A stretch of 64,000 nt of DNA, from positions 2,503,587-2,567,586 of the forward strand of contig OY760694.1 in NCBI GenBank assembly GCA_963663955.1, given 5' to 3'. Below are positions 1,875-18,500 of this stretch, piece by piece. This DNA comes from Acidimicrobiia bacterium. Lineage in GTDB: Bacteria; Actinomycetota; Acidimicrobiia; Spongiisociales; Spongiisociaceae. Position 1 is the stretch's first letter; the number at the start of each line of letters is the position of its first letter. Both the position numbers and the translations under genes were made by a program. Below the pieces are notes generated by a model. That model saw only the letters and a program-made list of their open reading frames with translations, did no database searches and was not told where the DNA came from.

Positions 1875-2957
1875 TCAGAAGCCTATGACCTCGCGTCGTA
1901 GGTGATCCGCTTGCTCGACCCCACGGCGTCTGTCACGTCGGAGATCAGCGTAGAGCCTGAACTGATTGACCATCCAAAGATTGCCGTATTGCTTGCTAAA
2001 GGCGAGCGGTGCGTCGGAGCGAGCTTGCAGGAACGCGACGTTGTGACCCTGGGCGACTGGAGTTGCCGCCGTGTGGTCGAAGAGTTGCCTGGGGTCGGCT
2101 GCCTCGGCAACCCATACTTCTGCGACGGTGATCGTAGTTATGAGAGGCGCGATGATGCTCGCTGCGGCGGCGCCGGTCAGCGCATACTCGATACCGGCAC
2201 CATGAAGGCCCTCCCCGAGTTCGGTGATGAGTTGCCGAGGGGTTTGGGCCAGCAGGTAGCAACGGGTCCGGACTGGTCGGTCAACATTCTCCTCGGCCCA
2301 CAAATCCAGCAAGGCGGTGGGATCCGAGACGTGGCGCGTCCGGAGAGGACCGGCACCCTTCGTGTTGACAACGCCCTCAACCTCAAGGCGTGACAGCACA
2401 CGGTGAATCAGGCCACTCGAGACGCCAGTCTGCTCAGCCAAGTCCTTAATTCGCCAAGCCCTTCCAGGATCCAGCAAGAGGGCTTGAGCTATCAAACCGG
2501 CCTTGCCCGACAAGCGGCTCGGCGCGGGGGGACGAGTCGACCGGCCGGTCCCTTCGATGTGACAGAGCAGTCCCGGCAGCTCTAGGTGAACGTTGCCGAG
2601 CCCATCAATGAAGGCTATGCCGTGCTCCGTGAGTATCCGTCGGGCATCTGTCGTAGTCTCGGCGGCGATGAGTATCAGTGGGAACTCGAGACGGGGTTGA
2701 ACAAGGTTGACTAGCTGCCAAGCGACCACAGCATTGACACGGGTCTTGAACTCGATCGCGACCCATTCCTCAGTCCCTGCGAACATCACAACGGCGTCCG
2801 CTGCACTGCGGAGAGGTTCGGACTCTGCAATGACATCGAGACCAGGGATAGCTCTTATTATCCGTAGGGCTTCGGCTTCGAACCTACCGCCTATGTTTAT
2901 CATCGGTGCTATCTTCACAATGAGTGTAAAGATAGCACTCCTTGTGAAGAAGGCCAA
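1875..2957 (-). CDS. HTH DNA-binding protein, putative AbiEi-like regulator/antitoxin partner of the downstream NTase
   Basis: Central helix-turn-helix IKDLAEQTGVSSGLIHRVLSRLEVEGVV. About 76 nt separates it from the NTase gene on the same strand. N-terminal ~130 aa resembles a small nuclease-like alpha/beta domain. Start codon uncertain. Confidence 0.4.
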   Translation of the reverse strand: MAFFTRSAIFTLIVKIAPMINIGGRFEAEALRIIRAIPGLDVIAESEPLRSAADAVVMFAGTEEWVAIEFKTRVNAVVAWQLVNLVQPRLEFPLILIAAETTTDARRILTEHGIAFIDGLGNVHLELPGLLCHIEGTGRSTRPPAPSRLSGKAGLIAQALLLDPGRAWRIKDLAEQTGVSSGLIHRVLSRLEVEGVVNTKGAGPLRTRHVSDPTALLDLWAEENVDRPVRTRCYLLAQTPRQLITELGEGLHGAGIEYALTGAAAASIIAPLITTITVAEVWVAEAADPRQLFDHTAATPVAQGHNVAFLQARSDAPLAFSKQYGNLWMVNQFRLYADLRRDRRRGVEQADHLRREVIGF

Positions 2958-3384
2958 GCGTCTGGGACTGTAGGCTCAACTGCTTTTCTCAACAAGAAGG
3001 GAGACGCATGTACGGCACTTCCAATTTCGAACCTATTGAGTGGGCCTGCCTAGATTGTGGTAGTTACAAGGATGGTTACACTGTTTAGAGATACTGAGCT
3101 TAGAGGCTAAAACTATATTATGCTTCAAGTCGGGCTATCCTTGAAGGTGCCGCCCCGACAACGGAACTCTGACTCGGGACGGACGGGTGTGCAGGGCTCA
3201 GTGTGAACCTACCTGACTTGCGATTACCCCTCCCCTCAGTACTGCATTACGGATCGGATACTTGGCTTGGTAGCCTCCGAAGGCAGGCCACTAACGATGA
3301 CACCACGGAGGCGAGACCGGTCGGACAACCCGCACCAAACTCGACACCTTGGCGTAGCACAGAACCGGACGCAGCGGGTTCTGG

Positions 3385-3812
3385 CTACTCGTGGCCCGAC
3401 GACGTGTTGTCAATCCAACGTCTTGCAGACGCTAGGAGCGACGGCGAACACTTCAACATGTCCATACCCACCGCAACACGAGAAGGTGAATCCTCCGGGA
3501 ACCATTTCTGCTCCAAATCCGCATAAACCTGAACCTTCGGGATTCGCACGTGTTCGATCTGCACGGTTACTTCCGGGAGCATGTGCTCTTCTGCTCCTGT
3601 TCTTGCAATAGTGATTTGAGACTGTGGGATGCCGTGTTGGACGAAGAGGCGTGTGAATAGCAAACGCTAGATTACCGACCTTTCAAGCTCGGGGTAAAGC
3701 AATCCACTAACCCTTGCACCGAATTGTAAATCGGTCGGGTCGGCTCCATAGGCGGCTATCTGCACAACAACGACTGGGCGCTCAGGTCCGTCAGCGATAG
3801 CGTTTCCTCCTG
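3385..3812 (-). pseudogene. Gene remnant with in-frame amber stop (unknown function)
   Basis: Minus-strand frame reads ...SGGNAIADGPERPVVVVQIAAYGADPTDLQFGARVSGLLYPELERSVI-TAG-RLLFTRLFVQHGIPQSQ... A single TAG at ~3664-3666 joins the 47-aa piece to ORF 3385..3663. No canonical start is visible upstream. Confidence 0.25.
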
Positions 3813-3953: not shown

Positions 3954-6919
3954 TTACTCAGGAACGGGGTCCCACAGCGTCCCAGAGCGAGTAGTTATCA
4001 CGGGAGTGACACGGCTCGCCCGGTCGGGACTGGTCTCTTGGGAACCGGCCAGGCCGGCGCGGACTTCTTCGGCGGCGCGCTGGGCGTTGAGTTCTAGCAG
4101 CCGGGCAAGCACCTCGTCGCGGACGGCGTCGGGCCAGCGGTAGGGCTTCTTCTTCTTGCCCCAGGTCTCCTCGTCGATCTCGTAGTCGAGGAGGAACTCG
4201 CAGTCCGTGGGGATGTCGGTCCAGCCGTAGGCATCCAGTACGGCTTGATCCATGGCGGTGTGCAGACGGCGGAGTTCGGCGATCTCGGGATCATTCTCGT
4301 AGGGATCGTGGAAGCGGTTGTATGTCTTCGTTATCCCCTCATTATTGTGGACCATGAGGGTTGCTCGGAACTCGTAGTACTCTGTGCCGACGTGTTCGAG
4401 ACTGACGCGATTCTCCCAGTTGCCCGGGAACGGAAATGTCTCGAAGCAGTCGGAGGGTGTGTAGCGTAGGTCGTCCTTCATCGAGGATACGCAAAACCGT
4501 GACCATAGTTCATGGGTCCTCGACTGAATCAAGCAAAAGGCTGCGTAGTCTGTAAACGGAAAAACAATCAGTGAATCCGCATACACCATGCCGCTAGATA
4601 AGAAGGCGAATCCCCAATAGTGGCTAACACGGCATATGGTGAGAACTCTTTCTAAGCCTATAAGTCTTTCGTACAGTTCTTTACGAGGACGTTCAAAGTG
4701 CCACCAATGCGCAGTCGAATGGCTCGCACGTTTTCCATGAACACGATCCTCTACGATGGACAATAGTTGCGGCCAGTCGGCTGCAACAGGGCCAGAGTAG
4801 TCGAGAGGGACCTCTCCGTCTCGGATCCAATCTTGCTGCTGGGTTTCTGACGCATCTCTCCATTTTTGACCTAGGCCCATCCGCGCAAGCGGATAGTCTT
4901 GGAAGTTGATTACATAGCGATGGTGTAGCAGAGCCGGACTTCGATTAACTTCTTTGCCTCCGATGTATGGTCCTTCGCCAGGGTGATCAACCAGAGCGAC
5001 AGCTTCGCGAGATCGACCGCCTTGGGATTGCGGTCTACTCCGTAGAGGCAGCGCTGGGCCACCAGCCGCCGGGCGAAGATCGCCTCGTCCTCGTCGGGTG
5101 GGATTTGGGGCATGGCGTCGTGGGCGCGCCAGGATTCGGCGAGTTGGCGGCAGGCCTCAACCAGGAAGGCGGCCGAGCCCATGGCCGGGTCGCACATCTT
5201 GAGGTCGAGAATCTGATCGGGACGGACCGGCCCGCTGGCTTTGGTGGCCAGCCCATCCAGGATGGGTTCCAGGGCTTTGCGGACGATGGGCTCGGTGAGC
5301 TCGCGGGGCGTGTAATGCGAGCCGGACTTTCGGCGTTCCTCGCTCGGTTGCAGCACCATGGCGCCCGCCGCTACCAGGTCTGGAGTGGCGTTGCGATCAA
5401 TAACCGGATCGAGTGCGGCGTGCATCTCGTCGAGCGAACCCGACTCCCGAACAGCCTTACCCACCTTGGCGGTGAGCTTGCGGTCGGTACGGTCCCGCAT
5501 CCACTTGACCCGCTCTGACGGTTCCTGTCCCAGCAGGCCTTCGAGGTTCACCGTGGCGGGAGCGCCGTGCCTCTTGGCGGCCTTGATGGCAACGCTCCGG
5601 CCTGTAGCGGTCTCCAGCCGGAAGCCCATCATGGTCTCGTAGACAGAGCCGATGTGCTCAACGTCGAGGGCTCGGTAGGAGATGCGTTCGGCGTCTAGGA
5701 CGATGAGCTTCTCGAGCACCCGGTCGATCGTGCCGTCCCCGATGCGCGGCGGCTCGATCCTCTCCAATGTCTGCCGTGGGCCGAAATCACGCCCTTCGAG
5801 GAACGGGTAGCGATCGGGGAGAAAAAGATCGCCATACTTGGGCGCCATGGACATCTGCCCGGCGTTTGCGCCGTCGTGGACCATGCGCCAGAGGGCTAGG
5901 AGCTGGGCGTAGGCGCCGTAGCGCTGGTCCATCGTATCTGGGTACAGGGAAGTGTGGGCTCGCAGCCGCTCGTAGAGACCGGACACCGAGTAGGCACCCA
6001 GGAAGGTCTCGTCCTGGGGTAGCAGGTCCCGTTCCTCGGCGTACAGCAGGTAGACGAGGCGCAGCACGACCGTCAGCAGTCCCCGATAGATCTCGTCAGG
6101 GTCCTCCGTAAGCCAGCGCCGGAGCAGCCGACCGTCAGACGCGTCATGAGCTGCCTGGAAGCCCCGCAGCAACTCGTACAGGGCGTGTAGAACCTGCTCG
6201 GCGAGGCGTTCCGAGACCTCGTTCTGGAACTTGCGGCTGTCTTCCAGCAGTGCCGCCAGGCGTTTCTCGCGAGCCACGCTCAGCAGGCGCGTCTCTCCGA
6301 GGAGCTCGCGCATGGCCGAGACGAGCCGGATCGTTTCGCCGTTGAAGAGGAGCCCCGCGGGAACGCCCGTGTTCCTCAGCAGGCGCTCCATCCGGCCATG
6401 AGGCGATAGGTCCAGACCGCCGCCGGTAATAGCGCGGTCCAGGTCCTCGCCGGGTTCGCACACGCTGACCAGGAACTGCCACGGAGAGGGTTCCTCCTCA
6501 AGCTCGTCACCCTCCGGAACGGCAGGCGGCGCCGAAGCCTTGAGCGGTTCGGAGCGAACTGCGAAGTCGGGCCGGAACACGTTGCCGGACTCCGGCAGCG
6601 GAAGCTCTAGGTTGGCCGGAACCGGTACCTCGGCGGTACCGGCGTAGCCCTTCGCGGTGAAACGCCAGCCGAGCACTTTCTGGGCGAACTCCCGGAAGTC
6701 CGGCAGTTCGGTCGTGGTGCCGGCCGGATCGGGAACGCCGTTCTCGACCCACTCGCGGAGTAGCTTCTGGCCTGCGATATCCCGGCGGTTCAGGATCACA
6801 CCCGCTTTTACGAGCGCAGGCGCCGACACCACCAGGCCGGTAGGTCGGACGAACCCGATCCACTCCAGATGGTCGATTACCCGCTGGTCGCGCTTCGCCA
6901 TCAGTTGGTCTCTGGCCAT
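3954..6919 (-). pseudogene. Gamma-class N6-adenine DNA methyltransferase (PglX / type IIG / DISARM DrmMI-like), frameshifted or internally deleted
   Basis: True start MARDQLMAKRD at 6919; the first 292 aa of ORF 4910..7795 are low-complexity overlap with the helicase. Motif X-like SGSHYTPRELTEPIV, motif I DPAMGSAAFL, then GVDRNPKAVDLAKLSLWL. Frame breaks near 4990-5000 before any NPPY-like motif IV. C-terminal domain (HWWHFERP..., FCLIQSRTHELW, DDLRYTPSDCFETFPFP, LHTAMDQAVLDAYGW) continues in a different frame as ORF 3954..4880. Confidence 0.65.
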
Positions 6920-9702
6920 AGGTATACGAGACCCACCGGTTCGACCCGTTTCACATGTACCTCGTAGAACTCGCGCACCCGGGCAGGCTCGTCCACCAGG
7001 TCCTCGTCGAACTGGGCGAGTCTCCTGTGCCAGTGCCGGATGTCGGCGTTGAGCTGCTTCGTTTCCTGGGCATTGAATCCGAAGGAAAGCTGCTTCCGGT
7101 CGCGTTCGTAGTGCTCGAGTTGGGCGACCACTTGGGCGCGGTGCCGCTCCAGGGTCTCTCGCAGCGACCGTTCCTCGCGCCGTCCGCGTTCGGCAAGCCG
7201 TTGCTCGGCTACTGCCGCGAACTCTTCCGCTCGAGGCTCCAACTGGGGACGGAGATCGGCGATGTCCTGGGGTGCGGAGGCGAGCAGTCTCCGGCGGATC
7301 ATCTCGTCCGGTTCTCGGGCGCGGGAGTCCAGGGAGGCGTCGAGGAGCCTCATGGTGCGTTCCTGCGCTTCCCGAGCGTAGGCGCGCAGCGGTCCGGAGC
7401 GCCGTTCCGGTTCGCTCCACCGGGCCGCCACCGGGATGATCTGCTCGTGCAGACGCTCGGCACCCCGGCCATACAGCGACAAGCGCCCGAGCAGGATGAC
7501 ACGCGGGATCGAATCCTTCGTCTGGGCGAGGCACGCTCGAGACAGGTCGTGATAGATGAACCCCTGTGAGCGGAACCGGGCCAGCAGCCGCTGGGCCACC
7601 CGCTGTTCCAGATGCAGGTGCACGGTTTGGTCGTCGAGCCGTCCTGTGTCCTCGAACACGACGGGTCGGAGGGGCGCGTCGCGTCGCCAGTCGGGGATCT
7701 TCTGGTCGATCCGGCGGGGCACGCGCAGTGAGTCGAGGGTGGATGTCCAGCTTGGATCGGTAGCTGCTCGCTGTTCCAGAGCAGGGAAGGTCCACACCCG
7801 GTGGCCGTTGTCACCGGCGCTCTCGGCGAGTTCCGAAGCTCCGAGCAGGCGGAGGGAGCAGTTGATCGCCTGGCGGAAGGGTTCCGCCGAGAACCTGACC
7901 CAATCCCGTGACTTCTCGAGGAGCTTCCGGCATCGCTCGATCTGGTCCTCGAGATCCTCGCGCCGTTCACGGGCCGCCTCTATCTCCTCGGCGGCGGCAA
8001 GGGTGCTTTCGCCCTGGGGAGACTCCGCCTTGATCTCGTATCTCAAGTGTTCCGCGTCGCTATGGCGGATGCCGTGGCGGATCAGGCGTTGCTCCACAGC
8101 GTCCTCGATCACCTTCGGTAGGCCTCCCAGTTCCTTCTTGATGGTCTCGGTCTTCCTGACCAGCACTTCGAGCACCCGGTCCTCGACTCGCTGCGGCAGC
8201 ACGAAGTAATGGCAGGTCACTTCGGTGGCCGGTTGCAGCTTGCGGTCGATGCGGCCGTTGCGCTGCTCGATACGGCCCGGATTCCACGGCAGGTCGAAAT
8301 GGAACATGTCCGAGCACCGCGCCTGCAAGTTGAGTCCCTCACGGGCGGCGTCGGTGGCTATCAGGATCCGCAGGGGCTCGTCGGCTGGGTCGGCATTGAA
8401 GCGGCGTTGTATCTCGCGGCGGCGCGCCGGGCTGGTCAACCCGTCGATCACATCTATCCGCTCATCGGCCTGGTCGGTGCCGAAGATGGCCTGCTCCAGA
8501 GTGGACTTCAGATACCGCTTGGTGCCCTGACGGTTCTCCGTGAAGATCAGGACGCGGCAGTCGGTCCAGGTGGGCGGCGGGCCGGTGATGGGCTTGCCCA
8601 TGGCTGGTAGCTCCGGGCACTGGTTGCGGCGTATCCACTCAATGAGCCATCGGGTCTTGGCGTCGGGTAGGTGCCTGGTCTCCTCGGCGATCTCCTGCAT
8701 GCGCTGGAGGAGACCCTGTTCACGTTCCCATGCCGCTGTCTCAGGGTCCTTGGACGGGAGGGCCGCCAAGTCGATCTCGCGGATGCGGGCCACCTCATCC
8801 GCCTCAACCTCTCAGGAGGCCAGCCAGCGCGCTCATCGTCGGCGTCGGGTGACTTCAGGAAAGCGAAGGCTTGATGGGAGTCGATCCGAGGTTGTGTCTC
8901 GCCGTCTTCGTGGGCTTCTTTCCAGTGGCGCAACACGTCCGGCGATGTACCAAGAGGGTGCGGACGAAAGCTTCGATCGACGACAGCAACTGCTGCCGCA
9001 AACGGATCACCATCAACCCGGCGGCATGTCGAACACGGCTGGATTCTGACCGGTAACGCTCCTCGCGCGCAATCCGATACTCGTCGAGGAGGCGGGATAA
9101 TTCCAGTTCGGGCGCCTCTTCGGGTAAGCCGTCGATCTCGATCCGCCTCACGTTGCGTTTCGGGAACCCACCTTGCACCGCCCGGATGTCCTCCTTCAGG
9201 CGTCGCACCATTACAGGTGCAAGATCGGTCTTGGGACGGGTCACCTTGACACCCCGGGTGAAGCGGTACGGGTCCAGCAGTTCCAACAGTGTGGAAAAGC
9301 TGTTCGAGTGGGCCGTTGTGGGGCGTCGCCGACAGGAACAGCCGATGCTCGAACCGGTGAGCGAGATCACGCACCGCTCGGGTGAACTTGGTCTCGATGC
9401 CGTACCGCCCGCCCGAGGAGGGCGCAGCGTGATGAGCTTCATCGAGGATCAGCAGGCTCCCCGTACGATGGTCACCCAGCCATTCACGCATCGGGTCCGT
9501 GTAGGACGGGTCGATCAGCAGGCGTTGCGAGATCAGGAACCTGCTGTGGGTACGCCAGGGATTCACACCGAAGCCGCGATCCCGGCGCATCCTCGACACG
9601 TAGCGCCTGTCGAGCACCTCGAACACGAGGCCGAACCGGTCCTCCATCTCCCCCTTCCATTGCTCCAGCATCGACGGAGGCGCGGCAACGACTGTGACCT
9701 TT
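6901..9702 (-). pseudogene. SNF2-family helicase (DrmD-like), C-terminal ~930 aa: remainder of ATPase core plus helicase-C and C-terminal region; internal frameshift
   Basis: DEAH box LILDEAHHAAPS and LFLSATPHNG in ORF 8547..9671. Frame switches to ORF 8855..9442 (STLLELLDPYRF), then continues in ORF 6901..8793 (helicase-C: RILIATDAAREGLNLQ..., FHFDLPWNPGRIEQRNGRIDR). The 5' boundary is the IS3 left inverted repeat at 9703. The stop overlaps the methyltransferase start by 19 nt. Confidence 0.7.
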
Positions 9703-9753
9703 GAACCCCCCCGGGTTTTCCGGAGACTCTAATTGGTTGGGAGATAATGGAGT

Positions 9754-12147
<2,394 letters not shown>

Positions 12148-12241
12148 CAATACCTGTCCATCCGCTACACAAACCGTTTAACGGAAACCGGGATCCGACC
12201 TTCGGTCGGATCCGTAGGCGACTCATACGACTGTGACGAGA

Positions 12242-13570
12242 ATGGTGTGGTCGTTGGGTCGGGTCTGACTCTTGTTACGACCGGCCGCAGAGTGCCTTTG
12301 CGTTGATCTGTCGGCCCGGCTCGGCGGCTTGTCCACACGCAGCTAGCCGTCCGGGAGGGCAGTGACCCAATAGGGGCCTGGGGTTTGAAACCCGACTCGT
12401 CACAGTCTTGTCCGCCCGCCCGGACGGCCGGTCTGCGTTCCACCACAGGGAGGAAACTATGACCAGTATCGTGTCCGATGCTCCGTTCGGGCAAGGTGAT
12501 TGTCGGGGTCGACACTCACAAGCACATCCATGTCGCGGTGGCAATTCAGCCAGCACGGCACCCGTCTGGGTGACCGCGCGGTGAGCGCTGACAGCGGCGG
12601 CTACGCCCAACCGGGTGGCATGGGTCCAGGAACTCGGCCAGCTTGACCGGTTCGGGATCGAGGGCACCGGCAGCTACGGCGCTGGGCTCACCAGTTACCT
12701 GCGACGCTGCGGGCATCGGGTAGTTGAGGTGAACCGGGGTGATCGCCGCTCGCGGCGCAACAGCGGCAAATCAGACGCTATCGACGCTGAAGCCGCCGCA
12801 CGGTCGGTCCTTGCGGGGACCTCGACCGCGGTTCCCAAGACCACGAATGGGCTGGTGGAGATGATCCGCCAACCCAAAGTAGCCAGAGACACCGCCCGCA
12901 AAGGCCGAACCTCGGCGATCATCACCCTTAAGACGCTGATCGTGAACGCCCCGGCCGAGTTGCGCGAGTCCCTCGATGGGCTCACCAATCGGGTCCTCAT
13001 CAACCGTTGCGCCCGCTTCCGAGTGTCGGCAATGGACAGCCCCACAGCCTCGGCCAAGCACTCGCTGAGAGCGTTAGCACGCCGCCGGCGCCACCTCGAC
13101 ACCGAGGTACGCCACCTACGACGCCGTGCTCGACGACGTCGCTACCCAGGCGTCGCCGACACTACGAGACGCCTACGGCATCGGAGCCGACTCCGCGGCC
13201 GAGGCTCCTCATCGTGTTCGGCGACAACCCAGAACGGATCCGCTCAGAGGCCGCCTTCGCGAAACTCTGCGGCACCTGCCCCATCCCAGCGTCGTCAGGG
13301 CAAACCAGCCGGCACCGCCTCTACCGAGGCGGACACCGACAAGCCAACGCGGCGCTCTACCCACTCGCCATCGTACGAATGCGATTCCACCAACCCACCA
13401 TCAACTACGTCGCTCGCCGCACCACCGAAGGCCTCACCAAAAAAGACATCATCCGCTGCCTCAAACGGTTCCTCGCCCGCGAGGTCTACCAGCGAGTCAT
13501 GACCGACCACCGTGCCCGGCAATGCCCTGCCCCCACCCCCTGAACCACAATATTTGACTATAGGGGCATC
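12242..13570 (+). mobile_element. IS110-family element inserted in IS3 OrfB; transposase heavily frameshifted
   Basis: Inserted exactly between the IS3 OrfB codons ...DSYD and NALAES.... No inverted repeats, as expected for IS110. Confidence 0.7.
12478..13543 (+). pseudogene. IS110-family transposase, at least 4 frameshifts
   Basis: MLRSGKVIVGVDTHKHIHVAVAI, then GTRLGDRAVSADSGGYAQ, then VAWVQELGQLDRFGIEGTGSYGAGLTSYLRRCGHRVVEVN...KSDAIDAEAAAR, then LLIVFGDNPERIRSEAAFAKLCGTCPIPASSGQTSRHRLYRGGHRQANAALYPLAIVRMRFHQPT..., each in a different frame. Confidence 0.7.
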
Positions 13571-13824
13571 AACGCCCTAGCCGAATCCGTAATCGGACTA
13601 TACAAAACAGAACTCATCCACAAACAGGCCCCATGGCGGAACCGTGACCACGTCGAATACGCCACCCTCGAATACGTCGACTGACACAACCCACCGGAGA
13701 CTGCTCAAACCAAACGGGGACAAACCACCAACAGAAACCGAAGCCGACTACTACCGTGACCACACACCAGCCCAGGTAGCTGGACTCAAATAAAAAAACT
13801 CTCCGGCAAACCCGGTACGGTTCA

Positions 13825-14255
13825 ACGGGTGATCAGGCCCGCCTCGATGGTCTTCCCCAAGCCAGTGTCGTCGGCAATCAGCAAGTTGACCCGCGGGAGC
13901 AGCAGCGCCTTACGCAGCGGGTTTCCATCTGATAGGCGTCGATAGTGATCCCTGCCCGGAAAGGCGCCTGGAACAGGGTCGGGTCGGTGGCAGTGGTGCA
14001 GTTCCACCGCAACGTGTTGAGAAAAGCAGCGAATTGGTGCGGCGGGTCCAACCCCTTAGTGGCCAGGCCCTCCCATCCCGCATCCTCGATGATCAGGCGG
14101 TCAGGCTCGTACTCCCAGAACACCTCGAGCGACTGACCCTGGTTGTCGTCGTCCACACAGGCCAGTCGGACCCGGGGCGACTCCGCCGGCTTGTCGGATT
14201 GGGCGACCTCCTCGACGATCCAGCGCCGAGATCGAACCTGGACCAGTTCACCCAC
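13825..14255 (-). pseudogene. SNF2-family helicase N-terminal fragment (motif I), separated from the rest by the IS3 composite insertion
   Basis: ORF 13878..14255 (...GITIDAYQMET) and ORF 13822..14007 (PLRKALLLPRVNLLIADDTGLGKTIEAGLITR = SNF2 motif I) are offset by 1 nt at the GAAACCC run around 13920-13926. The fragment ends exactly at the IS3 right inverted repeat (13824). Confidence 0.6.
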
Positions 14256-14321: not shown

Positions 14322-16066
14322 TATCCTAGGAGCCTGCTGTTCTATGGGGGTTGTGGTGTAGCGGGTTGTGTGGGTGGGGGGTGTGTTTTGGTGGTTCGGG
14401 GCGGGGTTTTGGGGTTTGTTCGATGTTGGGGGGCCGGTTTATGCGGTGTGGGCTGGTTATGCGGGGTTGAGGGTCCAGCGGGTGTTTGTGTGGGTGAGTC
14501 CGAGGTTGGTGAGGCGTTGTAGGTTGACGGCTGCTGCTCTGGTGGTGAGCCATTGTTTGTTGCGGGTTAGTCCTCGGTAGGGGACGCGTCTGGCTTTGCC
14601 TCGGGTGAGCCAGGCGATGGTTCGTTCCACGAGCGGCCTCCGGGTGCGGTAGGTGGTTTGGTTTCCGGGTTCCTTGAAGCGTGTCTTGTTGGCTTCCCGC
14701 CGGTCGTGGTGTTCGTCGACTGTGACGGTGCGTCCTGCTTTGGCGGTGGTGCACCGGGCCCTCAGTGGGCAGCCGTTGCATCGTTTCGCAAAGCGGGCGG
14801 TTCCTCCGGGGCGTATGCTGGCGGTGTGTCCGGCGGGGCATGTCACGGTTCGTGCCCCGGTGTCGATAGTGAAATCGTCGCGGTGGTATCCGCCTTCGAT
14901 GCGGGTTTTGCGTACGATCGGTTTCACGATGGGGGTGTGACCTGCTTCTTCGAACGTTTTGAGCGCCGGACCCGACGCGTAAGCGGAGTCGGCGAGTATC
15001 ACGGTTTCGGGGGGTTCTTCGGCTATAAGATCGGCGATGCTGCCGGCGTCTGTGGTGTTAGCCGCGGTGAGATCCGTAGTGGTGACCAACCCGGTTTCGG
15101 GTTCCACCGCGACATGTGCTTTGTAACCGTCCCGCTTGGCGGACCGGGTTTTGTGACCGTGCCGGGCTTCGGGGTCCACCACCGAGATTGTCCGGTCCTT
15201 GGCGACACGGCGGGCTATCCGCCAACGGCCTTCCCGGTCGGGGTCCTGTTCCACGTCCTGGCCGCACACCACTCCCAACAAACCCAGAGCTTCGACCTGG
15301 TCCGAATCCAGTTTCATGTCCTTGACCGTTTCGATCAGCTTCAGGCCGTCTGTGACCAACCCGTTGATCAACTCGGAACGGGACTCCGGATCGGACCAAT
15401 CACAGGACGGTTTCGTCTTCGATTCGTAATCATGCGCTACCAACACCACATCGGCGGCTTCGGGTATCAGACGGCGGCAACGCCGTATCTGGGATGAGAT
15501 CATCGTTACCGTGTCCTGAGTAGCAACCGCGTCATCCAAAATCGTGGAATCCAGAGCCCGACGATCCTTACCCGCCAACACCCCCGACTCTGCAACCACT
15601 TCCCGCACCGCGTCGAAGATACGCTCAGGCTTCTTACTCGCCCGCAGCCTCGCCCGCCACCGGGTCAACACCGTCGGATGAAACCCCTCATCCACCAACG
15701 ACAAACCCGCCGCTGCTTTCCAGGCGATGTCACAACGCAGCCGCTCAACCGCTTCCCGATCCGAAACAGCCTCCAAAGCCTGCAACACCAACACAGTCGC
15801 AATCACAGAACCCGGAACCGACGGGCGACCCCGCCCACTACCAAACAAATCCGCGAACATCCCGTCGGGAAACAAACGGAGGCGATGCTCCGCTAGAAAC
15901 CGGTACACCGAACCCACCGGCACCAACCCCCCACACAACCCCATCGTATCCAACAACTCACGATCAAAACGTTCAACACCCTGCATAACCCCCACAATAA
16001 CACCACCAAACACAAAACGCGAATACCCCCGGGCCCGACCACCCGAATAAAACAGCAGTCTCCTAG
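14322..16066 (-). mobile_element. IS1182-family (IS4/IS5 superfamily) insertion sequence upstream of the helicase gene
   Basis: Terminal inverted repeats CCTAGGAGCCTGCTGTT (14323-14339) and AACAGCAGTCTCCTAG (16049-16064), 1 mismatch. Encloses a 518-aa DDE transposase. Confidence 0.75.
14457..16013 (-). CDS. IS1182-family DDE transposase (intact)
   Basis: ...ILADSAYASGPALKTFEEAGHTPIVKP...RPLVERTIAWLTRGKARRVPYRGLTRNKQWLTTRAAAVNLQRL, the C-terminal signature of IS1182/IS5-like transposases. Confidence 0.8.
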   Translation of the reverse strand: MFGGVIVGVMQGVERFDRELLDTMGLCGGLVPVGSVYRFLAEHRLRLFPDGMFADLFGSGRGRPSVPGSVIATVLVLQALEAVSDREAVERLRCDIAWKAAAGLSLVDEGFHPTVLTRWRARLRASKKPERIFDAVREVVAESGVLAGKDRRALDSTILDDAVATQDTVTMISSQIRRCRRLIPEAADVVLVAHDYESKTKPSCDWSDPESRSELINGLVTDGLKLIETVKDMKLDSDQVEALGLLGVVCGQDVEQDPDREGRWRIARRVAKDRTISVVDPEARHGHKTRSAKRDGYKAHVAVEPETGLVTTTDLTAANTTDAGSIADLIAEEPPETVILADSAYASGPALKTFEEAGHTPIVKPIVRKTRIEGGYHRDDFTIDTGARTVTCPAGHTASIRPGGTARFAKRCNGCPLRARCTTAKAGRTVTVDEHHDRREANKTRFKEPGNQTTYRTRRPLVERTIAWLTRGKARRVPYRGLTRNKQWLTTRAAAVNLQRLTNLGLTHTNTRWTLNPA

Positions 16067-16518
16067 ACCTTCACCCTGACATCCTAAAGGGAGCACTCTC
16101 CTGATCTAGGACCCGAACCCCTTGTATCCAGGACGAAGTCGAACCCAACAGGGCCCGATACGAACGCACACAGACGCCCGGACTCCCCGACAATGTCGAA
16201 GATGGGACTCCAGAGCGCCTTGAAGTGAATGATGACGACCTGGCCAGGAACACCAAGGGCGGACTGCGGTCGGATCAACCAGATCCGGCGAAGTATCGCT
16301 ACCGAGTCCCGGCGGTCCAAGAATCTTTGATGCATGGCAGAAACAGCGAGGGCCATCCGTCGATTCCCGGCTCGTCGGTCGCTCAGGGCGCGCGCCGGGA
16401 GGCACTAGTCAGAACTTATACCAGACCTAATCCTTGGTACTGAGTAGGTACTCATCTGGCTACCGCTATAACGGAAAACGAAGGGGCTCGCTGACACCCA
16501 CGTTCGCTTGCAGTCACC

Positions 16519-17322
16519 ATGTGGATCGGTATGGTGGAACGTATGAGCAGACGTGAGCCAGAAGGCAATCGAGCAACTCCTCACGACACGGTGGACGCCA
16601 TCGCTAAGTCTAGCCGGCGGACGGCTTTTCCTCTGCGCCGAATGTTTCTCCAACAGAAGCGGGGTGACGAGACTCGACCGGGCCCGCTGGCTAGATTCGT
16701 CTCAGCGGGTGACCGCACGGGTCTACTCCTGTACTTCTTGGCCCTTACCAAGGCGAGCCAGAAACCTTGGAACGTTTCGCTCCACTCGGCGGTCTGGGCG
16801 AGGGCAATAGACCTGCCCCTTCCTGACACGACAACCGCTCGGGGTCGCGTGTCGAAAGCGTGGTCTCGGCTCGCTGATCGAGACTTGGTGGTCCGAGCTC
16901 GGCAGGGCCGCCTGGCCAAGTTCACGTTGCTACGCGAGGACGGGTCTGGCTCTCCCTACACGAGACCCGAGCGTGCCTTCGTGAAAGTCCCACACGTTTT
17001 GTGGACCAACGGGCCCGTGGCATCAAAGCGGTGGTATCAACTACTGACCCTGCCTGAGCTCGCCTTCCTAATCATTGCGTTGAGTAACTTGGACGACTTC
17101 TCTCTTCCGGTCGAACGTGGTCCCGATTACTACGGTGTCTCGGCCGATACCCTGCTGCGCGGATACACGGGTCTCCAGAATCATGACCTTCTGGTGGTCC
17201 GGAGCAACGCGTTCACCGCCCCCCTGTCGCCTACCGGACTGTCATACGAGAACCGCTACACGTTGAAGCCGCCCTTCGGTCCGGTCGGCAAGGTCAGCAA
17301 GGCGAGGAGCCGTGCCCGATGA
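16519..17322 (+). CDS. Hypothetical protein (possible wHTH)
   Basis: 267-aa ORF with alternative starts at 16531 and 16543. Stop overlaps the next ORF's start as ATGA (17319-17322). No recognisable catalytic motif. Confidence 0.4.
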   Translation: MWIGMVERMSRREPEGNRATPHDTVDAIAKSSRRTAFPLRRMFLQQKRGDETRPGPLARFVSAGDRTGLLLYFLALTKASQKPWNVSLHSAVWARAIDLPLPDTTTARGRVSKAWSRLADRDLVVRARQGRLAKFTLLREDGSGSPYTRPERAFVKVPHVLWTNGPVASKRWYQLLTLPELAFLIIALSNLDDFSLPVERGPDYYGVSADTLLRGYTGLQNHDLLVVRSNAFTAPLSPTGLSYENRYTLKPPFGPVGKVSKARSRAR

Positions 17323-17858
17323 GTCGGCAAGCGTACGCTGACGAGTCTGTGCGTGGGCGCGACTACATGCTTGGGGTCACGCTTGTTCCATCGAGCGAAG
17401 TAAAGGCCACCCGCAGGGCGCTACGGGCCTTGGTCTTGCGTGGTCAACGACGGATCCACTTCTCGAGCGAGAGCAACCACCGCCGTCGGGCCCTCCTGAG
17501 TGATATCGCTGCCCTCGAGACGAGTTCGACTATCTACCTTGCTCGGCACCATGATCAACCGGCGGCTCGCGATGCCCTTCTCACGGCGATGGTGCACGAC
17601 CTACTGAAGGAGCCGACGGCGCGGCTCGTGCTCGAATCACGCGCAGGCCAGGATCAGCGAGACCGCTCGGTCATCTGGCGCGCTATCGGCTCGAGCAGCC
17701 GGACGCGTCTTGCCTACGGTCACGAAGTTGGTTACCACGAGCCGTTGCTGTGGGTGCCCGATGCAGTCGCCTGGGCATGGGGTCGAGGTGGTCGCTGGAG
17801 ACAGACGGTAAGCGATCTTGGGCTGGTAACCGAGATCAAGAACATTGAGGTTTCCTAG
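17319..17858 (+). CDS. Hypothetical protein with RNase H-like N-terminal motifs
   Basis: N-terminal AYADESV...YMLGVTLV resembles the RNase H first-strand motif (YTDGS...G..GvvL), followed by SSEVKATRRALRAL (candidate Glu plus helix). Weak; function not established. Confidence 0.35.
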   Translation: MSRQAYADESVRGRDYMLGVTLVPSSEVKATRRALRALVLRGQRRIHFSSESNHRRRALLSDIAALETSSTIYLARHHDQPAARDALLTAMVHDLLKEPTARLVLESRAGQDQRDRSVIWRAIGSSSRTRLAYGHEVGYHEPLLWVPDAVAWAWGRGGRWRQTVSDLGLVTEIKNIEVS

Positions 17859-17868
17859 AAGCGCGCAA

Positions 17869-17902
17869 GCCCGGCCGCTCTCCGTCCGGAGAGGAGCCGG
17901 GC
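17869..17902 (+). terminator. GC-rich stem-loop (intrinsic-terminator-like) directly after the stop of ORF 17319..17858
   Basis: GCCCGGCCGCTCTCC-GTCC-GGAGAGGAGCCGGGC: 15-bp stem with one 2-nt internal mismatch and a 4-nt loop. No U-tract follows, which is common in high-GC actinobacteria. Confidence 0.35.
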
Positions 17903-18140
17903 CTACTTCCTTGGTCTACTGCCCTTGGCAATTGCATTATCACTTGACGGAGTCACGATTTCAACCGGAATTACAGACGACGATCCTCAGGGTAACCAAT
18001 TGCACGACGGCGCCGACTCCGCAAAAGGGTCCGAGACGCGTTGGAAACGTCGAAAAGAAAGGGCACACACAACCCCAATCAGGCCAAACGGAAACCGACA
18101 ACCAATCGGGGCATTCAGGTTTTGGGTACCGGTGCCACGC

Positions 18141-18500
18141 TCATGGAGTCGGCTCGAATCCCGCGCATCCCTCCGCCTCGATCACCTCGAAAGTCTCGGT
18201 AGGAAGCTCGATAACCTGCATGACGGCAACTTCGGAGCCGTCTATTACCACTGTCCCGGTGCGGGCGCTGTCCACATGAACGGAGGGCTGGTGGGAGTCG
18301 TAGGTGGTCGACCAATCCACCATCGCATCGAACGGGGTCCTCTCACCTTCATGGTCCCATAGGTAGGGGATCGTCACCGACCAGGCCGCCTCGGAGCAGT
18401 CGATAGCTCCGTCGAACCCCTCCGGACTCTCGGAAGAACCACACGCCACAACCGAGAGCAGCACGAGGGCCGCCGACGGCGCGAGGTTAAGCAGTCTCAT
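18141..18500 (-). CDS. Small lipoprotein (hypothetical)
   Basis: Signal peptide plus lipobox MRLLNLAPSAALVLLSVVACGSS. Start overlaps the enoyl-CoA hydratase stop. Confidence 0.4.
   Translation of the reverse strand: MRLLNLAPSAALVLLSVVACGSSESPEGFDGAIDCSEAAWSVTIPYLWDHEGERTPFDAMVDWSTTYDSHQPSVHVDSARTGTVVIDGSEVAVMQVIELPTETFEVIEAEGCAGFEPTP

Follow-up and report, generated by a model that had tools for sequence, protein, structure and literature searches.

A 64,000-nt stretch of the genome of an Acidimicrobiia bacterium (contig OY760694.1, positions 2,503,587 to 2,567,586; hereafter the window) contains two overlapping open reading frames, ORF1 and ORF2, followed by a predicted small RNA gene on the opposite strand. 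ORF1 (16519-17322, plus strand) encodes 267 aa when counted from the first ATG, and its database copy is a 263-aa protein starting at 16531. ORF2 (17319-17858, plus strand) encodes a 179-aa putative nuclease with a predicted RNase H2-like fold of the DUF3800 type. The predicted small RNA, of about 70 nt, occupies 17858-17929 on the minus strand, convergent with ORF2, both of its ends being predictions. A first-pass annotation of the window had described the two genes as a coupled pair of these sizes, and the pair is real: the reading frames overlap by ATGA at 17319-17322, and ORF2 begins, as had been quoted, with MSRQAYADESVRGRDYMLGVTLV.

From Acidimicrobiia to Microbacteriaceae, a stretch of approximately 105 nt beyond the ORF2 stop codon is much more strongly conserved than the encoded proteins. 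The stem-loop that the first-pass annotation placed here exists, with two 16-nt arms (17869-17884 and 17887-17902) that are 88% complementary, 14 of 16 positions being paired. The hairpin at 17869-17902 has a folding energy of -28.7 kcal/mol (z = -4.7 against shuffles). It had been interpreted as the terminator of the operon; however, a terminator scan does not call it, the U-tract is absent, and comparison of homologs shows it to be the core of a longer helix, P1. Read 5' to 3' on the minus strand, the predicted RNA consists of hairpin P2 (17909-17928, loop AGUA), a linker AAGUA (17904-17908) and the long P1 helix (17867-17904), which has an invariant apical CCGGACGG and is followed by the 3' tail UUGCGCGCUUC.

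An alignment of 65 distinct instances of the RNA was used to examine covariation. Its consensus contains P2 with 8 bp and the loop AGUA, an invariant GAAG linker, and P1 with 15 bp, and RNAalifold found compensatory changes in 13 of its 16 predicted pairs. For a hand-built structure of 23 pairs, 87.8% of cells were paired, compared with 30-49% when the partners were slid by 1-3 columns. Double (compensatory) changes occurred in 18 of the 23 pairs (191 cells), and the observed values were not reached in any of 500 shuffles. The paired fraction of 87.8% was obtained by reading from the minus strand, compared with 78.3% from the plus strand, and G·U pairs filled 164 cells, compared with 23 for A·C. 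Because G·U pairs far outnumber A·C, the RNA is read as transcribed from the minus strand. Read from the minus strand, the window RNA has a folding energy of -41.2 kcal/mol and a z score of -3.5, compared with z = -1.2 for the plus strand.

A promoter scan placed a sigma-70-type promoter of the small RNA at 17936-17964 on the minus strand, with a -35 box TTGAAA (17959-17964), a 17-nt spacer and a -10 box GATAAT (17936-17941). It matches the consensus at 10 of 12 positions and is the sole promoter-like site in 16000-18500. A similar arrangement recurs among the homologs: the pattern TANNNT starts 13-14 nt before P2 in 31 of the 65 instances and almost nowhere else, often with TTGAAA or TTGACA as a -35 box 17 nt upstream.

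These observations bear on the simplest alternative, in which the locus is a plain two-gene operon with an intrinsic terminator, or the element functions solely at the DNA level, for example in attachment or recombination. A stable hairpin directly after a stop codon, and integrases adjacent to it in some loci, would fit such an arrangement, but we regard it as highly improbable. The 164:23 excess of G·U over A·C is expected only of a minus-strand RNA, and the second hairpin, the conserved single-stranded motifs and the promoter at a fixed position also speak against such an arrangement. In addition, the element is present in multiple copies in several genomes and in tandem units, lies inside islands and not at their ends, and in phages occurs in the virion-structure module, far from integrases. 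The related possibility that the RNA is a host gene serving as an attachment site was rejected on account of the multiple copies, tandem units, island-internal positions and phage structural-module copies. The hairpin is instead the main stem of a predicted, independently promoted and strongly covarying small RNA gene on the opposite strand.

A covariance model of the RNA, R1, matched the window once, at 81.5 bits (E = 3e-18). Searches of Rfam 15 with 15900-18500, with 17840-17975 and with a copy from Mycobacterium avium gave only matches of at most 20 bits, far below the gathering scores, although Rfam does hold the DUF3800-I and DUF3800-IX motifs. PtaRNA1, a plasmid antisense antitoxin RNA, aligned over its full length to 17859-17931 on the minus strand, but scored only 12.2 bits where the gathering threshold is 47 (E = 3.6 for a 136-nt query), and this alignment was taken as chance. 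The small RNA is unannotated in every record inspected.

To define the occurrence of the components, one genome per GTDB species was surveyed, giving 303 relatives of ORF2, and the best 80 were used for locus analysis. Every named taxon among these 80 is actinobacterial. Of the 80 loci, 71 were searched with R1, which matched immediately next to the ORF2 gene in 70; the remaining nine contain the motif pattern. The RNA is thus found beside an ORF2-family gene in 79 of the 80 species-level genomes. About a quarter of the loci (19 of 80) have ORF1 in front of ORF2, with an overlap of 1-7 nt. In seven loci a tyrosine integrase takes this place with the same 4-nt overlap, and the remainder have a small family without assigned function or nothing recognisable upstream; the RNA is kept all the same. 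Of all components of the locus, the small RNA shows the highest conservation and is the one that constantly accompanies ORF2; ORF2 with its RNA forms a near-obligate unit to which ORF1 is an optional add-on. Chance does not account for the ORF1-ORF2 pair: each protein has hundreds of homologs, and the overlap of the two genes is seen again in 19 of 80 independent genomes. The expectation of conserved pairing thus holds in part: the pair is recurrent, but is confined to a portion of the ORF2 family.

Duplicated and rearranged loci retain the association. Tandem ORF2 copies, each with its own RNA, occur in loci L085 (5615-8612, three copies) and L073 (7917-9302, two copies), from Saccharothrix and Actinosynnema genomes, and L027 has a second, inverted ORF2 copy, also with its own RNA. 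In L094, two insertion sequence (IS) elements lie between ORF2 and its RNA, which are about 3 kb apart. In L014 (6646-8540) and L017 (6646-8573), the RNA is located upstream of ORF1 and divergent from it. These two modules are 1.9-kb inserts between genes that, judged by eye, encode a CoA-transferase-like protein and a luciferase-like monooxygenase, and no integrase was detected within about 8 kb on each side. Because the RNA has been relocated in L014 and L017 and separated in L094, it need not overlap the ORF2 transcript.

The relocated copies also bear on the possibility that the RNA acts as a cis-antisense regulator of the type I kind, pairing with the 3' end of the ORF2 mRNA and setting its stability or translation with no protein partner. 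In nearly all loci no more than about 5-10 nt separate the end of the RNA from the stop codon of ORF2, and P1 could serve as a bidirectional terminator giving about 40 nt of perfect complementarity. We nevertheless consider this explanation very unlikely, since the RNA lies on the other side of the pair without overlap in L014, L015 and L017 and about 3 kb away in L094. Pure antisense pairing would not demand the invariance across classes that is seen in the loop and linker nucleotides (CCGGACGG and GAAG); orphan copies of the RNA occur in phages; and ORF2, the candidate toxin, would be a soluble enzyme of 179 aa and no small membrane peptide.

Two of the loci show additional features. In L015, a 276-aa ORF (5945-6775) contains YVDDSGDE and resembles, by eye, another DUF3800-type protein; it ends about 330 nt ahead of the RNA copy that precedes the ORF1-ORF2 pair, and the opposite strand carries a divergent ORF1-like ORF at 4908-5822. 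In locus L099 (10001-11777), an integrase fragment, an ORF1 homolog and an ORF2-like gene encoding 199 aa are succeeded by a tRNA gene (11704-11777) in convergent orientation. The RNA model has no match in L099, where the tRNA gene occupies the usual place of the RNA and the contig ends soon after.

The structure model of ORF2 is RNase H2-like, as the first-pass annotation had suspected, and its closest structure is an RNase HII with 13% identity. In an alignment of 57 family sequences, the catalytic-looking acidic residues are conserved: D8, E51, D115 and D148 are invariant, and E9 is present in at least 90%. H47, R84 and an E-P-L-L-W-x-x-D motif are also conserved, along with E51. DUF3800 proteins are described as RNase H2-like, carrying a DE motif, and tied to mobile elements, defence and noncoding RNAs (PMC7736814, PMC5737381, PMC10910872, PMC13594972). 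By the definition given for this domain (PMC7736814), ORF2 has the N-terminal DE motif (D8 and E9) and, in the model, the RNase H2-like fold. The C-terminal QxxD is absent from the ORF2 family, which has an invariant W three residues ahead of the invariant D148 (E-P-L-L-W-V-P-D). ORF2 itself has no match to PF12686 or any other Pfam model, even at E ≤ 1, but 18 of the 57 family members give weak PF12686 matches (best E = 1.4e-4), and two distant relatives are named DUF3800 by UniRef and RefSeq. The RNase HII family PF01351 gave no match to ORF2 in Pfam or NCBIfam, and a profile search of PDB sequences with the ORF2 family returned chance matches only, with no RNase H among them. ORF2, most of which had earlier been called unrecognisable, therefore appears to be a distant protein of the DUF3800 type and a putative nuclease: its predicted fold resembles RNase H2, and its acidic active site is intact.

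The ORF2 family comprises 3551 clusters at 50% identity, and almost all members in the annotated records inspected are labelled hypothetical proteins. Several copies per genome are found, on mobile elements. Although type 2 RNases H (RNase HII/H2A and HIII) are the nearest structures, ORF2 differs from them in its 13% identity, the absence of PF01351, and the additional H47, E51, R84 and E-P-L-L-W-x-x-D, and it differs from the housekeeping, single-copy RNase HII in being multi-copy and carried by mobile elements.

ORF1 is predicted to consist of two tandem winged-helix (WH) domains, a DNA-binding fold, and its top structural match is the R6K pi initiator, the match spanning both domains. A putative ORF1 promoter/operator at 16436-16479 (plus strand) contains two GGTACT repeats (16436-16441 and 16447-16452, spaced 11 nt), then the box TACCGCTATAACGGAAAAC at 16461-16479. 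In divergent loci a box TACCGCT-N3-AAC/AG-AAA, with preceding GTAC-containing repeats, lies about 90-100 nt 5' of the ORF1 start. It is shared by L096, in which ORF1 is paired with a canonical DUF3800 gene. ORF1 probably binds the GGTACT repeats at its own promoter, and would be an antitoxin-like or regulatory DNA binder translationally coupled to ORF2. Scans of ORF1 and ORF2 against Pfam, NCBIfam, PADLOC and PHROGs gave nothing usable, and a profile search of PDB sequences with the ORF1 family gave chance matches only.

The partners of ORF1 were surveyed in 79 metagenome loci containing the gene. An ORF2-family gene follows ORF1 in 19 of the 25 evaluable loci whose ORF1 protein is at least 45% identical to that of the window, compared with 2 of 34 for more distant homologs. 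In seven of the loci with distant homologs (L263, L265, L272, L273, L276, L285 and L291), where ORF1 identity is 35-40%, the overlapping downstream gene encodes a GNAT protein of about 190 aa. A profile of this partner matched GNAT acetyltransferases in the PDB with E values of 5e-11 to 2e-9, including 5fvj, 7ak7 and 7ak8, which we take to be Salmonella TacT-family tRNA-acetylating toxins. Pfam scans of the distant ORF1 partners returned nothing, and the GNAT link comes from the profile search of PDB sequences. Three further distant-ORF1 loci (L282 4630-5073, L283 3633-4073 and L286 4728-5174) share a 148-aa partner family with a lysine-rich N-terminus and a conserved LWELRVSGLERIWG motif; its sole match is a weak one to NCBIfam MAG6450_fam (E about 1e-3), and none was found in the PDB. 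The family may look RelE-like, but this is a tentative impression. An ORF1 homolog 61% identical to that of the window precedes a 254-aa protein with a direct PF12686 match.

The resemblance of ORF1 to R6K pi raises the possibility that the locus is the replication module of an integrated plasmid-like element, with ORF1 as an iteron-type initiator, the RNA as a primer or regulator, and ORF2 as an RNase H acting at the origin. In ColE1-like replication, RNase H processes an RNA-DNA hybrid at the origin. The nearest structure of ORF2, an RNase HII, would suit this scheme, as would the presence of both protein families on actinobacterial plasmids and the GTAC-containing repeats 5' of ORF1. Several observations make it very unlikely in our view. 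Most ORF2-RNA loci lack ORF1, and a 16-kb M. avium plasmid that carries the ORF2-RNA unit is typed with its own replicon cluster. The module also occurs as 1.9-kb inserts between core genes and in two or three tandem copies. No direct-repeat or iteron array was found around the pair (16000-18500), where only short two-copy chance families were detected and no tandem repeats were reported, and the ORF1 family gave no Rep_3/RepA Pfam signal beyond one weak RP-C match among 60 members. Compared with the iteron-binding initiators R6K pi, RepA and RepE, ORF1 shares the dual-WH fold only, with no family match, iterons or origin context. Finally, relatives of ORF1 pair with GNAT toxins. Because ORF1 is found upstream of, and overlapping with, interchangeable toxin-type genes, we read it as a type II-like antitoxin or regulator and not as a replication initiator. 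Type II toxin-antitoxin pairs consist of two small overlapping genes, a DNA-binding antitoxin upstream of its toxin, with partners that can be exchanged between families. Relevant to a possible assignment to this type are the 4-nt overlap, the predicted DNA-binding fold of ORF1 and the partners of its relatives (a TacT-like GNAT, a canonical DUF3800 protein or the 148-aa family), as well as the fact that most ORF2 genes lack an ORF1. ORF1 may represent a new, exchangeable family of antitoxin-like DNA-binding proteins.

Wherever annotation is available, the neighbors of the module are defence, toxin-antitoxin and mobility genes, and the defence- and mobile-element-rich setting proposed for the window is borne out both there and in homologous loci. 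In L091 (5529-13033), the module lies inside a type I restriction-modification system, with hsdS on one side and hsdM on the other (order hsdR, hsdS, module, hsdM), and in L030 and L035 HsdR- and HsdS-like genes lie upstream of the pair. L035 also contains a second, orphan copy of the RNA at 2939-3028. One variable island carries SNF2-NOV_C and an M78 peptidase, together with either Prok-E2/DUF1156/PIN or CBASS (SAVED, SMODS, ThiF) genes, and other neighbors include SIR2, Fic, PIN, ParE/Phd, AbiEii and RES-Xre genes. In some loci the module lies directly 3' of an integrase gene and 5' of ribbon-helix-helix (RHH) and excisionase genes, and a tyrosine recombinase is present within 8 kb in 15 of the 80 GTDB loci. 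Besides the M. avium plasmid, plasmids of Rhodococcus and Gordonia carry the ORF2-RNA unit, with genes for ParA and resolvase nearby.

Both the full unit and the RNA alone occur in phages. The Mycobacterium phage Gaia, which infects M. smegmatis, contains a full ORF2-RNA unit (L307 2995-3614), in which ORF2 is gp134, annotated as hypothetical, the RNA lies at 3524-3614 on the strand opposite gp134, and HNH endonuclease genes flank the unit. Relatives of ORF2 are encoded in just 2 of 2.9 million IMG/VR contigs. A raw DNA pattern applied to IMG/VR gave mostly chance hits, the covariance model being passed by 5 of the 80 pattern-derived loci scanned. The RNA model found good copies (50-66 bits) in five further viral contigs lacking ORF2; PHROG neighbors of the RNA-only copies are a major head protein, Neck1, an endolysin and an integrase. 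One of the five contigs is the Gordonia phage Zitch. Unannotated orphan RNAs are present in Zitch (L151 1378-1465) and in the Gordonia phages Zipp (L223 2501-2589) and Phinally (L224 2501-2589). About a dozen phages of Gordonia terrae conserve the element, among them representatives of Zitchvirus and Leonardvirus. The RNA of Zipp and Phinally lies between a tail-completion/Neck1 gene and the next structural gene, co-oriented with both. P1 of the Zitch RNA is identical over 32 nt (CCCGGCAGCCATCCGGACGGTTGGTGAGCCGG) to the RNA of the ORF2 module on the Gordonia plasmid pGKT1. A weaker match to the model (29 bits, E = 1.6e-6), with the GAAG linker absent, occurs in the Microbacterium phage Leaf (L225 2461-2543), immediately upstream of, and slightly overlapping, a tRNA-Asn/Gln/Trp cluster. 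Phages can carry pseudo-ToxI RNAs as decoys against type III (ToxIN) systems, and the RNA-only copies seen here are, by analogy, suggestive of such decoys.

In the window itself, the left flank of the pair is formed by a DDE transposase gene (14457-16013; DUF772, DDE_Tnp_1 and DDE_Tnp_1_6 domains), and the right flank by ORFs that resemble ordinary housekeeping genes, as judged by eye. The dips in GC content reported on both sides of the pair are real and modest (0.57-0.58 at 16200-16800 and 17800-18200, compared with 0.60-0.65 within the genes). Farther to the left, the minus strand at 3954-14255 contains a decayed defence system with overlapping or broken reading frames, whose ORFs match the Pfam models MmeI_TRD, N6_Mtase/MmeI_Mtase and Helicase_C. 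A SNF2-like N-terminal fragment (13878-14255) has no Pfam match and was called by its similarity to the SNF2 gene of L001. Transposase ORFs of IS3 type (10076-10828), IS30 type (10740-12140) and IS110 type (12615-13502) lie inside the decayed system. In L001, an intact version, consisting of a 429-aa SNF2 protein, a 652-aa Helicase_C protein and an MmeI-type methylase of more than 1341 aa, likewise adjoins the ORF1-ORF2 pair. There is no tRNA gene anywhere in the window, and integration at a tRNA therefore cannot be argued for it.

We propose that the locus is a toxin-antitoxin or abortive-infection-type module of mobile islands and plasmids, in which ORF2 is the effector nuclease, the RNA its trans-acting controller, and ORF1 an antitoxin-like autoregulator. 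We consider this quite possible, with a chance somewhat short of even. ORF2 would be the toxic or effector nuclease, and the RNA its specific trans-acting partner, which most simply would bind ORF2 and restrain or control it, as in type III logic. ORF1 would hold the antitoxin or autoregulator position of a type II-like pair, acting at its own GGTACT repeats. Loss of the element or infection by a phage would unbalance RNA and protein and release the nuclease, and in phages that have the RNA without ORF2 it would be a decoy. What we infer in this scheme is that ORF2 is active as a nuclease, is toxic and binds the RNA, together with the part played by ORF1 and a function in defence or addiction. 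A more ambitious form of the proposal is tentative and in our judgement rather doubtful: that the locus represents a new protein-RNA class of toxin-antitoxin or anti-phage system, in which the RNA silences a DUF3800-type nuclease, actinophages such as Zitch carry host-matched RNA decoys, and ORF1 belongs to a promiscuous antitoxin or regulator family with two winged helix-turn-helix (wHTH) domains, swappable between toxins as unrelated as DUF3800 nucleases and TacT-like acetyltransferases.

Several points weigh against a toxin-antitoxin module of this kind. About three quarters of the loci have ORF2 and the RNA but no ORF1, which therefore cannot be an essential antidote. The RNA is single-copy and convergent, whereas known type III antitoxins form a repeat array upstream of the toxin. 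An accessory DUF3800 gene of Legionella was scored as essential by transposon sequencing (Tn-seq), which would fit a protective and not a toxic role for at least some DUF3800 proteins; the polarity of the partners, that is, which of them is harmful, could therefore be the reverse of what we propose. The enrichment of defence genes around the module, seen in every context inspected, is an apparent one. The orphan RNAs of phages could serve a purpose unrelated to ORF2. Moreover, the PADLOC, Pfam and NCBIfam libraries fail to recognise ORF1 or ORF2.

The phage copies and the conserved core of the RNA also bear on a different relationship between the same two partners, in which ORF2 is an RNA-dependent nuclease that needs the small RNA as a cofactor, scaffold or guide, following the logic of Argonaute, IscB or TnpB, with invading nucleic acid as the target. 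Such a scheme would account for the near-obligate pairing of ORF2 with its RNA equally through a nuclease-RNA complex, but we think it unlikely. With its 179 aa, ORF2 can hold little more than a catalytic core. All parts of the RNA are paired or else invariant in sequence, so that the conserved core offers no variable, guide-like segment, and a phage carrying the activating cofactor of a host nuclease would harm itself.

Comparison with characterised systems places the proposed module of effector nuclease and controlling RNA near several of them. In type III systems, the antitoxins are tandem repeats located upstream of, and co-oriented with, an endoRNase toxin of a different fold, which processes them. 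The logic proposed here, of a nuclease restrained by a structured RNA, is by analogy similar to ToxIN, as are the occurrence on plasmids and islands and the RNA look-alikes in phages; the differences are a single convergent RNA gene with its own promoter, downstream of ORF2, and a protein with a predicted RNase H fold. Like the antitoxins of the type II pairs TacAT and AtaRT, distant ORF1 homologs lie upstream of, and overlap with, genes for GNAT proteins. However, the antitoxins of those pairs are small RHH/DUF1778 proteins, whereas ORF1 is a dual-wHTH protein of 260 aa, and its partner in the window is a putative nuclease and not an acetyltransferase. Type I systems have a small hydrophobic toxin peptide and an antisense RNA overlapping the toxin mRNA, whereas ORF2 is a globular, enzyme-like protein of 179 aa and the RNA is non-overlapping in L014, L015, L017 and L094.

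Retrons of type VII combine a reverse transcriptase, a noncoding RNA and a DUF3800 effector (Mestre et al. 2020, PMC7736814). Features in common with the present locus are a DUF3800 protein modelled on RNase H2, an N-terminal DE motif, a dedicated noncoding RNA and a tripartite, defence-type system, and the DUF3800 proteins of type VII retrons also lack the Q of QxxD (PMC7736814). In contrast to these retrons, no reverse transcriptase is present among the called genes of the annotated homologous loci, the acidic set of ORF2 is D-E...D...D plus E51 instead of DEED, and the third component is a wHTH protein.

The closest precedent is the set of motifs DUF3800-I to -XI, structured RNAs of unexplained role found with DUF3800 genes (Weinberg et al. 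2017, PMC5737381). The association is of the same kind, a DUF3800-type gene with a structured RNA. Unlike the genes of those motifs, ORF2 scores below any Pfam DUF3800 match, and its RNA matches no Rfam family. Restriction to Actinomycetota (among the loci and records examined here), the fixed convergent arrangement, the optional wHTH partner and the phage orphans are not mentioned for DUF3800-I to -XI in the texts consulted.

The association of a DUF3800 gene with a structured RNA of unexplained role is thus already known. New here are a subfamily that lies outside the Pfam model, an RNA that is absent from Rfam, and a fixed convergent architecture in which the RNA has its own predicted promoter, together with an exchangeable wHTH partner and the occurrence of the RNA alone in phages. 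In the literature searched, we found no report of a role for the DUF3800 domain or its RNAs, and none tying DUF3800 to a toxin-antitoxin mechanism. DUF3800 proteins occur beside retrons, beside Cas12a2/a3 and Cas13 loci, and beside eleven different structured RNAs. The present locus is a very clean instance, consisting of a minimal 179-aa DUF3800-type protein and one RNA partner with a defined strand and promoter, and it comes with natural experiments in the form of relocated RNAs, an IS-separated RNA, tandem units, and RNA-only copies in isolated phages. Carriers that are tractable in the laboratory, including phage Gaia, the G. terrae phages Zitch, Zipp and Phinally, and the plasmids of M. 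avium, Rhodococcus and Gordonia, make this long-open question directly testable. If ORF2 is indeed a nuclease silenced by its RNA, this would suggest what the eleven unexplained DUF3800-associated RNA motifs do.

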